Shown here: piece after piece, positions 432-13,406 of the stretch | How the letters are laid out: the number at the start of each line of letters is the position of its first letter | Numbering within the stretch: the stretch's first letter is position 1 | From: a virus | Taxonomy: Duplodnaviria > Heunggongvirae > Uroviricota > Caudoviricetes | Virus record (IMG/VR): IMGVR_UViG_2778261447_000002 | DNA: 13,406 nucleotides | Reading direction: 5' to 3' (one strand) | Program-made: the position numbers and the translations under genes | The notes under the pieces: model-generated | What the model saw: the letters and a program-made list of their open reading frames with translations, nothing else | Database searches by the model: none | Told to the model about the DNA's origin: nothing

Positions 432-935
432 ATGTCGAATATCAGTAATATTGGAGACGTTTATCACTGGAGTATCGCGAAAATTGCAGAAGCCTTTGCT
501 ATGGACAGGAAGGTGGTAAAAAAAAGACTGCTGGAGGCCAATATCCCTGTTGCTGGTACTGTTCGTGGTAATCCTGTTTATGCATTGAGAGATGTCGGAC
601 CCGCTTTGTTTGAGAGTAAATCAGTCATTGCTTCCGATATACATGACCCGTCACGAATGGAGCCTAAAGAGCGTAAAGACTGGTTCCAGTCAGAAAATGA
701 ACGTATCAAAATGGAAACGACATTAAAACAACTTGTTCCTGCCAGTGACGTACATCGCGAAATGGCGTTGATGTTGAAGGTCGTTACTCAGGTACTGGAT
801 ACGTGGCCTGACAAACTGGAACGAGATCGAGGCTGGAGTGCATCACAAATCGCTGAGGCTCAACGAGCAGTTGATGATATCCGTGAGGCATTATCAACTG
901 AAATGAGAGAAAGAGATGATGAGGTGGAATTATGA
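432..935 (+). CDS. Terminase small subunit (Nu1-like DNA-recognition subunit)
   Basis: First gene after the cos region, with its stop overlapping the large terminase start (ATGA at 932-935). N-terminus (IAKIAEAFAMDRKVVKKRLLEANIPV) resembles a helix-turn-helix DNA-binding fold; C-terminus is charged and helical. ATG at 432 is preceded by GAGAGGTGG; the ORF track begins at an upstream GTG (426). Assignment is by position and composition; sequence similarity to lambda Nu1 is weak. Confidence 0.7.
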   Translation: MSNISNIGDVYHWSIAKIAEAFAMDRKVVKKRLLEANIPVAGTVRGNPVYALRDVGPALFESKSVIASDIHDPSRMEPKERKDWFQSENERIKMETTLKQLVPASDVHREMALMLKVVTQVLDTWPDKLERDRGWSASQIAEAQRAVDDIREALSTEMRERDDEVEL

Positions 936-3031
936 CCTTTGCTTCTGCAAGTGCTATCAGGCGTGATGTTTCCGAATTACTAAAACCACCCACAAGAATG
1001 CCAGTGGCAGAAGCTGTTGAGAAATATATGCGAGTGCCACTGGGTGGGGGAAGTTCATTGCCATGGGATGCATCTTTGACGCCTTACATCATTGAGCCAA
1101 TGAATTGTTTGTCTTCCCGTGACTATGATGCGGTTGTTTTTGTCGGGCCAGCGCGAACAGGAAAAACGGTTGGATTAATTGATGGCTGGATTGTTTACAG
1201 CGTGGTTTGTGAACCTGCAGACTTTTTGTTAATTCAAATGACAGAAGAGAAAGCAAGGGAGCATTCCAGAAAACGCCTTGATCGCACATTCCGGGTCAGT
1301 AAAGAGGTTGTTCGGCGAATGAGCCCACGAACCAATGATAATAACGTCCATGATAAGACTTTTAAGGCGGGTAATTATCTAAAAATTGGTTGGCCGTCAG
1401 TTAATATAATGTCGTCTTCTGATTATCGATTTGTAGCATTAACAGATTATGATCGCTGGCCTGATGATATTGATGGTGAAGGTGATGGTTTCTCCCTGGC
1501 TTCCAAACGTACCACGACGTTTATGTCAGCAGGGATGACACTTGTGGAGAGTTCACCCGGACGCGAAATTTCGGACAGTAAGTGGCGGAAAACCTCTCCA
1601 CATGAAGCTCCCCCCACTACGGGGATCCTGTCACTCTATAACCGTGGTGATCGTCGTCGCTGGTACTGGCCCTGTCCGGATTGTGGGGGGTATTTTCAGC
1701 CATCCATGGAGACTATGACGGGGTATCGTGACAATCCTGATCCTGTAAAAGCCAGTAAATCGGCTCATATATTATGTCCTCATTGTGGTAACCGAATCAC
1801 CTCAGACATGAAACGTGAACTGAACGGACGTGGGGTCTGGTTACGGGATGGTGAGCAGATTGACATGGAGGGGAATGTTACCGGAACGCCACGTAATTCA
1901 AGGATTGCCAGCTTCTGGATGGAAGGGCCAGCTGCTGCGTATCAGACCTGGGCGCAACTGGTTTACAAATTACTGACTGCAGAACAGGAGTATGAAGCGA
2001 CAGGAAGCGAAGAAACACTCAGGGCGGTTATCAACACCGACTGGGGATTGCCTTATCTTCCCCGCGCCAGCATGGAGCAACGAAAAAGTGAACTGCTTGA
2101 GCAGCGGGCAGAGCCAGTTCCTTCACGCAGTGTGCCGCATGGCGTTAATTTCCTTGTGGCGACAGTGGATGTGCAGGCGGGACGTCATCGCCGTTTTGTG
2201 GTTCAGGTAACGGGCTATGGCAGTCGTGGCGAACGCTGGATTATTGATCGTTACAACATCACGCAGTCATTGCGCGGTGACAGCGACGGGGAGAGCCAGC
2301 GAATTGATCCGGCCAGCTATCCGGAAGACTGGGATGTCCTGCTGACGGATGTTTTTCATAAAAGCTGGCCGCTGGCCTCCGATCCTTCTCAACAAATGCG
2401 ACTGATGGCAATGGCGGTGGACTCCGGCGGTGAAGACGGGGTCACTGATAATGCCTATAAATTCTGGCGTCGTTGCCGTCGTGATGGACTTGGTAAACGT
2501 ATTTACCTGTTTAAGGGCGACAGCATCCGGCGAGCAAAACTGATCACCCGTACATTCCCTGATAACACCGGACGAACGGGCCGCCGGGCGCAGGCCGCAG
2601 GTGATGTGCCGCTCTGGCTTCTTCAGACGGATGCCCTGAAAGACCGGGTGAATAACGCGTTATGGCGTGACTCGCCAGGTCCAGGCTATGTGCATTTCCC
2701 TGACTGGCTGGGGAGCTGGTTTTACGACGAACTGACGTATGAAGAGCGGAGCAGTGACGGGAAATGGAGTAAGCCGGGTCGCGGTGCCAACGAAGCTTTT
2801 GACCTGATGGTGTATGCCGAGGCTCTGGTCATTCTGCATGGATACGAAAAGATCCGCTGGCCGGATGCACCGGAGTGGGCGAGCCGGGAGACCTGGCTGG
2901 AGTGTGTCCAGGACAGTACCGAACCGTCATCCTCACCGGAACCGGTATCCACGCCTGTTAAAAAACAAAAACGGAAGAAAACAGTAACTGACGATGTTAA
3001 CCCCTGGCTGACTTCCGGAGGATGGTTATGA
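932..3031 (+). CDS. Terminase large subunit (GpA family; ATPase + nuclease)
   Basis: 699 aa. Walker A-like motif VGPARTGKT near the N-terminus, Cys-rich zinc-ribbon-like segment (CPDCGG...CPHCGN) as in lambda gpA (CPHCGEE), size and gene order as in lambda A. RBS GAGGTGG at 921-927. Confidence 0.9.
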   Translation: MTFASASAIRRDVSELLKPPTRMPVAEAVEKYMRVPLGGGSSLPWDASLTPYIIEPMNCLSSRDYDAVVFVGPARTGKTVGLIDGWIVYSVVCEPADFLLIQMTEEKAREHSRKRLDRTFRVSKEVVRRMSPRTNDNNVHDKTFKAGNYLKIGWPSVNIMSSSDYRFVALTDYDRWPDDIDGEGDGFSLASKRTTTFMSAGMTLVESSPGREISDSKWRKTSPHEAPPTTGILSLYNRGDRRRWYWPCPDCGGYFQPSMETMTGYRDNPDPVKASKSAHILCPHCGNRITSDMKRELNGRGVWLRDGEQIDMEGNVTGTPRNSRIASFWMEGPAAAYQTWAQLVYKLLTAEQEYEATGSEETLRAVINTDWGLPYLPRASMEQRKSELLEQRAEPVPSRSVPHGVNFLVATVDVQAGRHRRFVVQVTGYGSRGERWIIDRYNITQSLRGDSDGESQRIDPASYPEDWDVLLTDVFHKSWPLASDPSQQMRLMAMAVDSGGEDGVTDNAYKFWRRCRRDGLGKRIYLFKGDSIRRAKLITRTFPDNTGRTGRRAQAAGDVPLWLLQTDALKDRVNNALWRDSPGPGYVHFPDWLGSWFYDELTYEERSSDGKWSKPGRGANEAFDLMVYAEALVILHGYEKIRWPDAPEWASRETWLECVQDSTEPSSSPEPVSTPVKKQKRKKTVTDDVNPWLTSGGWL

Positions 3032-3240
3032 ACCAGAATGATATCGAAGCCATGATTCAGCGTTATACGGAAGCTGAAATGGCGGTGCTGGACGGAAAAT
3101 CCGTCACCTTTAATGGTCAGCAGATGACCATGGAAAACTTATCTGAGATCCGGCAGGGACGGCAGGAGTGGGAGCGCCGCCTTGCGGCTCTGATTACACG
3201 ACGACGGGGGCATCCCGGGTACCGGCTGGCGAGGTTCTGA
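3028..3240 (+). CDS. W: Head completion / head-tail joining protein (gpW-like)
   Basis: About 70 aa ORF between large terminase and portal, as lambda W. C-terminal TRRRGHPGY resembles lambda W C-terminus (QRRRGPAGFYV). Start ATG 3028 overlaps the terminase stop (ATGA) and is preceded by GGAGGA (3017-3022); the ORF track starts at the upstream ATG 3022. Confidence 0.75.
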   Translation: MNQNDIEAMIQRYTEAEMAVLDGKSVTFNGQQMTMENLSEIRQGRQEWERRLAALITRRRGHPGYRLARF

Positions 3241-13000: not shown

Positions 13001-13125
13001 GCATGAACGGGCAGATAGGTCCGGCTGCCCTGAAGGTGGTTTATGACCTCGGGAAAAAAGCAGCAGCGGACTTTATGCAACAGCAGTCCCGTGATGGTGG
13101 TCTGTTCTCCGGAGGTGGACGATGA
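10060..13125 (+). CDS. H: Tail tape measure protein (lambda gpH homolog)
   Basis: About 1021 aa. N-terminus MDQIANLVIDLGIDAAEF vs lambda MAEPVGDLVVDLSLDAARF. C-terminus NNDGMNGQIGPAALKVVYDL...RDGGLFSGGGR is almost identical to lambda H. Long Gln/Ala/Glu/Arg-rich coiled-coil interior. RBS GGAGGTG at 10047-10053; the ORF track starts at an upstream TTG (10030). Confidence 0.92.
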   Translation: MDQIANLVIDLGIDAAEFKNEIPRIKNLLNGAASDAERSSARMQRFMERQTQAARQTTQAASSAATAASVHAQTVEKNAQAHERMAREVEKTRQRMEALSQKMREEQAQAMALAEAQDKAAAAFYRQIDSVKQASAGLQELQRIQQQIRQARNSGGIGQQDYLALISEVTAKTRVLTQAEEEATRQKVAFIRQLKEQATRQNLSSSELLRAKAAQLGVSSAAEVYIRKMEQAGKATHSLGLKSAAARQEIGVLIGELARGNLGALRGSGITLANRAGWIDTLMSPKGMMLGGVIGGIAAAVYGLGKAWYDGQKEGEEFNRQLSLTGHYAGVTAGQLWTLSRAISGNGITQHAAAGALAQVVGSGAFRGNDIGMVARAAAQMERSVGQSVSDTINQFKRLKDDPVNAAKALDNELHFLTATQLEQIRVLGDQGRSSDAARIAMSALAEETGRRTADIDNNLNALGSTLKYLSDLWSRFWDAAMNIGREDSLDEQITALQEKVSRAKRLPWTASSSQVEYDQQRLNDLQEKKRQKDLQDAKEQAERNYQEQQKRRNAENAALNRMNETEAARHQREIARINAMQYADQAVRDAAIQRENERYEKALASGKKKTRETRNDEATRLLLQYSQQQAQVEGQIAAARQSAGIATEKMTEAHKQLLALQQRISDLDGKKLTADEKSVLARKDELMQALTLLDVKQQELQKQTALNDLKKKTIQLTSQLAEEERAQRQQHDLDIATVGMGDQQRQRYQVQLSLRQKYQQQLEQLRRDSEQKGTYNTDDYRKAEQALTESLNRQLNENRRYWQQLEVVQGNWKNGVLRAFQDFTVDADNTAGTAEQVFSSAFSNMGNGLATFVTTGKLNFKSFTSSVLSDMAKILAQATMMKSIKGIGSVLGFDLSSLSLNANGGIYQSADLSRYSGTVVNRPTFFAFAKGAGVMGEAGPEAILPLRRGADGKLGVVAQICGSGMAMFAPQYNIEINNDGMNGQIGPAALKVVYDLGKKAAADFMQQQSRDGGLFSGGGR

Positions 13126-13406
13126 AAACCTTCCGCTGGAAAGTGAAACCCGGTATGGATGTGGCTTCGGCCCCTTCCGTAAGAAAGGTGCGCTTTGGTG
13201 ATGGCTATTCCCAGCGAGCGCCTGCCGGGCTGAACGCTGACCTGAAAACGTACAGCGTGACGCTTTCTGTTCCCCGTTGGGAGGCCACGGCGCTGGAGTC
13301 GTTTCTGGCTGAGCACGGGGGCTGGAAGGCCTTTCTGTGGACGCCGCCTTATGAGTGGCGGCAGATAAAGGTGACCTGCGCAAAATGGTCGTCGCGGGTC
13401 AGTATG
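13122..13406 (+). CDS. M: Minor tail protein M (lambda gpM homolog), 3' end cut by window edge
   Basis: ATG 13122 overlaps the H stop (ATGA). Translation MKTFRWKVKPGMDVASAPSVRKVRFGDGYSQRAPAGLNADLKTYSVTLSVPRWEATALESFLAEHGGWKAFLWTPPYEWRQIKVTCAKWSSRVSM is near-identical to lambda M as I recall it. Open to the last base of the window, so absent from the ORF track. Confidence 0.9.
   Translation, partial: MKTFRWKVKPGMDVASAPSVRKVRFGDGYSQRAPAGLNADLKTYSVTLSVPRWEATALESFLAEHGGWKAFLWTPPYEWRQIKVTCAKWSSRVSM

Follow-up and report, generated by a model that had tools for sequence, protein, structure and literature searches.

Modular mosaicism of lambdoid phages has been described since HK97 and HK022. Head and tail genes of these phages are separate, co-transferred modules, as reported in a study that included mEp460 (PMC9836094). 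Here we describe a 13,406-nucleotide stretch of the IMG/VR virus record IMGVR_UViG_2778261447_000002 (the window, meaning the whole stretch analyzed), which holds terminase, head and tail genes in lambdoid order, up to the first part of the tail tip gene M. Its gene order is that of the unclassified lambdoid siphoviruses mEp460, cdtI, PhiR47_1, Tritos and Ayreon (the mEp460 group). The portal, the fusion of protease and major capsid protein (MCP), and tail proteins U, V, T and H of this group are 96-100% identical to the window's in amino acid sequence, and G is 94% identical. The group differs from the window in the N-terminal ~360 residues of the large terminase (TerL; 67-74% nucleotide identity), in cement proteins without a collagen tail, and, PhiR47_1 excepted, in a C-terminal patch of Z; its match to the window ends at ~13,103-13,164, beyond which its M is 56% identical.

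Other described relatives share the arrangement to varying extents. Phage phi458, a spontaneously induced prophage of avian pathogenic Escherichia coli DE458 (PMC9701743), has the window's head, shaft and joint between H and M. It differs in the small terminase, the TerL N terminus, the absence of a collagen tail, a stretch of H (12,400-12,800) that diverges to 75-89% nucleotide identity, and J (89% over 78% of its length). The architecture from a DUF1441 terminase through M is also that of the Salmonella prophage Gifsy-2, of Fels-1 and of prophages of enterohemorrhagic E. coli Sakai such as VT1-Sakai; the same order is found in Gifsy-2, mEp460, phi458 and VT1-Sakai, with Lom and sodC inserted after M in Gifsy-2. 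The late operon of lambda is collinear, and its TerL and portal belong to the same Pfam families as the window's.

The window corresponds, with one mismatch and one 1-nucleotide indel, to positions 1521686-1535090 (minus strand) of NZ_CP127316.1, the complete circular chromosome of E. coli strain Ch1, an isolate from chicken feces. There it lies inside a lambdoid prophage, with lysis genes on one side and tail-tip and fiber genes on the other. PhiR47_1, PhiR55_1, phi458, Tritos, Ayreon, mEp460 and cdtI match 87-91% of the window at 95-96% nucleotide identity. No single known phage resembles it uniformly: the best match, PhiR47_1, covers 91% at 95.9%, and the remaining patches are unaligned or at 67-74%. 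Of 5426 complete E. coli genomes, 1791 contain matches covering at least 80% of the window, so that the structural module is very common. We describe the window as, very probably, the left part of the late operon, which encodes virion structural proteins, in a lambdoid prophage of the Gifsy-2/cdtI/mEp460/phi458 type.

A sequence-only reading of the window had proposed a head module unlike lambda's joined to a lambda-like tail. This is mostly correct. Compared with their lambda counterparts, head proteins show no match or 23-24% amino acid identity, shaft proteins 26-54%, and M 94%. We propose that the genes fall into three tiers: head and packaging genes of a lineage other than lambda's; shaft genes that would be old homologues of lambda's; and a tip block, running from the last ~12 codons of H onward at ~94% nucleotide identity to lambda, that was probably gained through homologous recombination in a short conserved segment of the H/M boundary. 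The mosaic resemblance to lambda is real, but ordinary and known in kind: it is textbook lambdoid mosaicism rather than something new. As a further example in an often-sequenced prophage type, it matters little beyond its use as annotation.

The tail genes and the joint between H and M

Each gene was compared with lambda by BLASTP and TBLASTN, and families were assigned with Pfam, unambiguously for nearly all genes. The tail features, with amino acid identities to lambda, are:

7561-8151, plus strand: tail completion protein Z (PF06763, Minor_tail_Z; 41% to lambda Z)
8148-8549, plus strand: tail terminator U (PF06141, Phage_tail_U; 53% to lambda U)
8560-9303, plus strand: major tail tube protein V with a C-terminal Big_2 domain (PF16461, Phage_TTP_12, and PF02368; 54% to lambda V)
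9324-9341, plus strand: terminator-like hairpin 3' of V (an annotated terminator in mEp460)
9364-9750, plus strand: tail assembly chaperone G (PF06894, Phage_TAC_2; 32% to lambda G)
9738-9744, plus strand: GGAAAAG, likely -1 slippery heptamer for a G-T fusion (identical to the annotated heptamer of N15)
9744-10088, plus strand: T reading frame, -1 relative to G (PF06223, Phage_tail_T; 38% to lambda T)
10060-13125, plus strand: tape measure protein H, 1021 residues (PF06791, PF24622 and PF09718; TMP_2/Tape_meas_lam_C)
13089-13103, plus strand: crossover zone CGTGATGGTGGTCTG, near-identical in mEp460 and lambda (four-way alignment, sliding identity)
13122-13406, plus strand: tail tip protein M, first 95 residues (PF05939, Phage_min_tail)

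The sole sharp joint to lambda-type DNA lies at ~13,089-13,103, in the 3' end of H. In a four-way alignment of the window, lambda, mEp460 and phi458, the window tracks mEp460 until ~13,102 and lambda from ~13,087. Sequence on the 5' side of the crossover zone is mEp460-like (94-99% nucleotide identity), and that on the 3' side is lambda-like (94-100%). The zone sits ~12 codons ahead of the H stop codon, which overlaps the start of M. Across it, amino acid identity to lambda passes from 26% (H overall, which is 98% identical to mEp460 H and 168 residues longer than lambda H) to 94% (M) within about 100 nucleotides. The 95 residues of M in the window are thus almost identical to lambda's, as had been claimed, and are 56% identical to mEp460 M. 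Two related claims did not survive the comparison. Identity to lambda does not rise gradually toward M; it stays on a low plateau of 26-54% in amino acids and then steps up at the crossover zone. Nor is the C terminus of H nearly identical to lambda's: 34 of its last 46 residues match (74%), and a near-perfect match is confined to the last 13 (12 of 13).

Nucleotide searches against lambda give the same picture. BLASTN returned two substantial matches, at 8095-9020 (65%) and 12987-13406 (89%), and three minor ones of 41-75 nucleotides (7791-7836, 7894-7934 and 10035-10106). In the source prophage, the lambda-type tip block extends over 5026 nucleotides at 94.2% identity to lambda 12965-17987. 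It comprises the end of H, M and, outside the window, L, K, I and residues 1-836 of J; M, L, I and this part of J are 94-99% identical in amino acids between lambda and the prophage, and K is 76-91% identical (it is frameshifted in the record). In mEp460, M is 56% identical to the window prophage's, but L is 91%. The tip proteins of phi458 are closer (M 99%, L 95%, I 97%), and phi458 carries an identical H/M joint. Since phi458 is a plaque-forming siphovirus (PMC9701743), the combination yields a working virion. The joint is present in 89 of the 5426 complete genomes; in other genomes the similarity to the window either starts at 13,090 or stops at about 13,106, which indicates that the H/M boundary is a recurrent exchange point. 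The last residues of the tape measure protein travel with the tail-tip block, as expected if interacting parts are co-transferred.

We observe the homologies, the identity steps with their positions, and the recurrence of the arrangement. The process behind them would be recombination between co-resident or co-infecting lambdoid phages or prophages, after which selection would have favored compatible sets of interacting proteins. Two points weigh against this account or limit its precision. The crossover zone is only ~15 nucleotides long and a second patch conserved in the window, lambda and mEp460 lies upstream (12,987-13,040), so that the crossover point is approximate. In addition, the Ch1 prophage copy may be defective, given that its RefSeq record has a frameshift in TerL, an internal stop in the W-like gene and a frameshift in K; TerL and the W-like gene are both intact in the window itself.

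The shaft genes are those expected of a lambda-type flexible tail: every one is present, collinear with and homologous to its lambda counterpart (Z, U, V, G, T and H, E values of 2e-14 to 4e-100 in BLASTP). The collinear similarity claimed earlier for Z, U, V, G and T is confirmed, at 32-54% amino acid identity. The GGAAAAG heptamer lies in the G/T overlap and is kept in mEp460 and Gifsy-2, the lambda heptamer being GGGAAAG, and the T frame is open from 9726; a -1 frameshift at this site is likely to give a G-T fusion, with a predicted length of 241 residues. The fusion is unannotated in the RefSeq source record, mEp460, PhiR47_1 and phi458.

Head genes and the boundary between head and tail

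Upstream of the shaft genes, the window encodes the following packaging and head features:

432-935, plus strand: small terminase, DUF1441 family (PF07278, E=2e-44)
932-3031, plus strand: large terminase TerL, gpA family, ATPase and nuclease (PF05876/PF20454)
3028-3240, plus strand: small gene at the W position, putative head-tail adaptor (from its position and a weak, below-cut-off DUF6148 match)
3240-4748, plus strand: portal protein, lambda portal family (PF05136, E=2e-81)
4693-6720, plus strand: ClpP-like prohead protease fused to the major capsid protein (Phage_capsid_4; PF00574 and PF25209)
6744-6757, plus strand: terminator-like hairpin 3' of the capsid gene (mEp460 has an annotated terminator at the equivalent position)
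6807-7277, plus strand: capsid cement/decoration protein with a collagen tail (PF09956, E=9e-21, and PF01391, E=2e-7)
7274-7549, plus strand: Gifsy-2 family protein at the FII position, probable head-closure protein (PF13856; PDB 2PP6, E=4e-17)

TerL and the portal are the two head-module proteins with detectable similarity to lambda: TerL is 24% identical to gpA over ~90% of its length (E=2e-16), and the portal is 23% identical to gpB over 232 residues (E=1e-7). For these two, the family-level resemblance to lambda that had been suggested for the head genes holds. It fails for the small terminase, the protease-MCP fusion and the cement protein, whose Pfam families (DUF1441, CLP_protease with Phage_capsid_4, and Phage_cement_2) are other than those of their lambda counterparts. 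BLASTP and TBLASTN gave no match of the small terminase to Nu1, of the W-position gene to W, of the protease-MCP fusion to C, Nu3 or E, or of the FII-position gene to FII, and nothing significant between the cement protein and D (E=3.2). Lambda Nu1, W, C, Nu3, D, E, FI and FII went undetected by sequence in both search directions, whereas the positive control, N15, matched lambda's head genes at 42-90%. The window therefore lacks the recognizable C/Nu3, D, E, FI and FII that mark a lambda-type head. The protease part of the fusion matches ClpP structures (E=4e-16) and is of ClpP type (S14), whereas lambda's is S49. The product of the W-position gene is 100% identical to mEp460 gp03, annotated as a head-tail adaptor.

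Lambda cosN (GGGCGGCGACCT) has no match with up to three mismatches in positions 1-431, upstream of the terminase genes; elsewhere in the window there are eight such matches, below chance expectation. For this phage type, cos could be situated left of the window. Because the small terminase is of the DUF1441 family, the protease and capsid protein form a ClpP-like fusion, and lambda cosN is absent upstream of the terminases, the head and packaging system is of a different type from lambda's, which agrees with the earlier proposal. The DUF1441 small terminase and gpA-family TerL would package DNA into a head built from a lambda-family portal and the protease-capsid fusion and decorated by the cement protein, and a lambda-type flexible tail would then be supplied by Z, U, V, G and G-T (through the -1 frameshift), H and M.

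The gene at the FII position may be a remote homologue of lambda FII. Profile comparison with hhalign aligned it to lambda and N15 FII over 80 collinear columns (P=0.0016, probability 16%), with very shallow alignments, and we regard this as suggestive only. Its current names, "DNA breaking-rejoining protein" in RefSeq and "ATP-binding sugar transporter" in Pfam, both look misleading for a gene at this position.

The proposal that fares best among those we do not favor, itself very unlikely in our judgment, is that one discrete, traceable recombination event at about 7300-7600 joined a foreign head to a lambda tail and so conferred a lambda-like host range. It is true that clear homology to lambda starts where the FII-position gene gives way to Z (boundary 7549/7561), and it is detectable from the Z start codon at 7561. 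In VT1-Sakai, moreover, a window-type head (40-78%) is paired with a different shaft lineage, nearer to lambda's: V is 80% identical to lambda V versus 54% for the window, and for V, T and part of H the identity to lambda is 62-80% versus 26-54% for the window. This pairing implies that head and shaft modules have been reassorted sometime in the history of the group. A replaced patch also lies close by, at 7,081-7,345, and is the only discontinuity near the interval 7270-7560, where a junction with flanking microhomology had been suggested. It represents exchange among phages of the same head type, however, not a lambda-type join.

At 7270-7560 itself we found neither a joint nor microhomology with lambda, as nothing aligns there at the nucleotide level. 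The adjoining shaft is only 26-54% identical to lambda in amino acids and ~65% in nucleotides at best (41-54% immediately beside the proposed joint), and the sequences at the start of Z are too diverged (41% in amino acids) for a joint there to be located; the junction placed at ~7300-7600 is thus untraceable. Gifsy-2 has the same gene order as the window; identity to the window's proteins is 31-69% in the head and 39-69% in the shaft. Because the pairing of head and shaft is common to Gifsy-2 at similar divergence in both modules, and is found in the 1791 matching genomes, a third of the complete E. coli set, it is old and stable, and 7300-7600 is an old module boundary.

The lambda-like host range is likewise unsupported. 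Lambda's use of its receptor, LamB, is specified by the C-terminal part of J. The J protein of the source prophage, encoded outside the window, is 95% identical to lambda J over residues 1-836 only; beyond residue 836 a 94-residue stretch alone aligns to lambda (56%), and the C-terminal third is otherwise unrelated. The last 333 residues (positions 33033-34031 of the prophage locus, L001) have a best match of 53.5% among 50,697 phage records. Likeness to lambda M, L and I therefore does not predict the receptor.

Pure vertical descent with lambda, with head genes evolving much faster than tail genes, deserves almost no credence. It would fit the presence, in the same order, of TerL, the portal and possibly the FII-position gene as remote lambda homologues, but it does not accommodate the jump from 26% in H to 94% in M within about 100 nucleotides, the S14/S49 protease difference, or the different small terminase and cement families. 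Similarity rankings are also mutually incompatible from gene to gene among N15, VT1-Sakai and mEp460; N15, for example, combines a lambda-type head with a shaft 24-63% and a tip 30-37% identical to the window's. Assembly of the patchwork as a chimera of several lambdoid prophages in one genome is scarcely credible either: eight places in the source genome match parts of the window, the collagen repeat recurs in the prophage's own side tail fiber gene (such repeats break short-read assemblies) and many partial cement proteins lie at contig ends, but the chromosome record is complete and circular, the H/M joint occurs in the independently isolated phi458 and in the 89 complete genomes, and the collagen-tailed cement protein is found on 8 + 174 contigs, one of them an independent 13-kb contig whose gene order is the same. 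We reject both on this evidence and retain the three-tiered mosaic with its one sharp joint at the H/M boundary.

Exchanged patches and the collagen-tailed cement protein

Sliding-window identity against the closest relatives points to further exchanges, probably with phages closer than lambda, that would have affected the small terminase with the TerL N-terminal ~360 residues, a patch at the boundary between the cement and head-closure genes, and a patch in Z. Positions 200-1,000 do not align with these relatives, and 1,001-2,000 align at 67-74%. Identity to the group then leaps to 96-100% at ~2,000-2,035, around TerL residue 360 and just inside the nuclease domain. The left segment has a G+C content of 0.44-0.48 versus 0.53-0.56, and the mEp460 small terminase is only 37% identical to the window's in amino acids. 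Together, the small terminase and TerL's N-terminal ATPase region (~360 residues) form a single exchanged unit, distinct from the C-terminal region of TerL and from the portal. In lambda, the N terminus of gpA binds the small subunit and the C terminus binds the prohead. The breakpoint fits this layout: it leaves the N-terminal part attached to the small terminase and the C-terminal part to the portal, dividing TerL into a half on the small-terminase side and a half on the portal side.

The patch next to the head-closure gene is as follows:

7081-7345, plus strand: patch replaced relative to mEp460, cdtI, PhiR47_1 and phi458 (nucleotide alignments, sliding identity)

Within it lie the last strand of the cement protein, in variant form, the collagen repeats and the opening ~24 codons of the following gene. 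A further patch, at 7,801-8,000 in the C-terminal part of Z, is 66% identical to mEp460 and phi458 and 99% identical to PhiR47_1. The independent 13-kb contig, from a metagenome run (L005), has the same collagen patch and gene order. Its identity to the window is 100% at 200-2,600 but falls to 67-91% over W and the portal and to 74-95% in the N-terminal part of H. Judged from these alignments, the region appears mosaic at a sub-gene scale even between near relatives.

The 156-residue collagen-tailed cement protein is the window's sole mildly novel item. Its cement domain is complete (PF09956 positions 2-103 of 103), aligning end to end with 107-residue relatives, and is followed by 16 uninterrupted Gly-X-Y triplets that score above the PF01391 cut-off. 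RefSeq flags the gene as a truncated pseudogene missing its C terminus, which looks like an annotation artifact. When 5.8 billion proteins are clustered at 90% identity, the fusion makes up a single cluster. The exact sequence is present on 8 contigs and a near-identical variant on 174, and the patch segment with the collagen tail is found in 2 of the 5426 complete E. coli genomes. At the DNA level, the collagen-coding part shows 78-88% identity to repeats of lambdoid side tail fiber (Stf) genes, the prophage's own Stf included. Cement proteins of this family are typically 105-112 residues long. In a screen of 133 newly returned representatives, taken from the best 150 listed, one distant member (P0155, 42% identical) likewise carries a run of 11 Gly-X-Y triplets at its C-terminal end, and a few others bear different C-terminal extensions; the C terminus thus seems permissive.

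We found no description of a fusion of DUF2190 (Phage_cement_2) with collagen in the literature searched. Only SPP1 gp12, a trimeric protein with Gly-X-Y repeats (reviewed in PMC7602432), turned up as a precedent for a capsid decoration protein of collagen-like type. Unlike the window's protein, whose collagen is a C-terminal addition to a complete cement domain, SPP1 gp12 comes from a Bacillus phage and has no Phage_cement_2 domain. The cement family profile has no credible match among PDB sequences, and an AlphaFold2 monomer model of the fusion protein is poor (mean pLDDT 56, pTM 0.39). We speculate, as something possible rather than probable, that a tail fiber repeat moved onto a head protein and that collagen-like head fibers serve as an accessory adhesin or surface modifier. 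If this is true, and if the cement proteins are trimeric on the capsid, short collagen-like fibers would project from the head. The protein would amount to a natural C-terminal "display" on a decoration protein.

The source prophage

A few observations concern the prophage and its record. At 1615 the window reads C6 where the Ch1 RefSeq sequence has C5, and at 3166 GAG where it has TAG; the window's bases reopen the TerL and W-like frames, and L005, PhiR47_1 and phi458 agree with the window at these positions. These discrepancies may be sequencing errors in the record, or the window may derive from another version. Upstream of the small terminase, positions 16-264 hold an 82-residue open reading frame without a Pfam hit. 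Between J and the side tail fiber gene (L001 34070-34956), two hypothetical genes (74 and 220 residues) replace lom. Neither matches anything in lambda, Gifsy-2, VT1-Sakai or the mEp460 group, and they may be moron or cargo genes.

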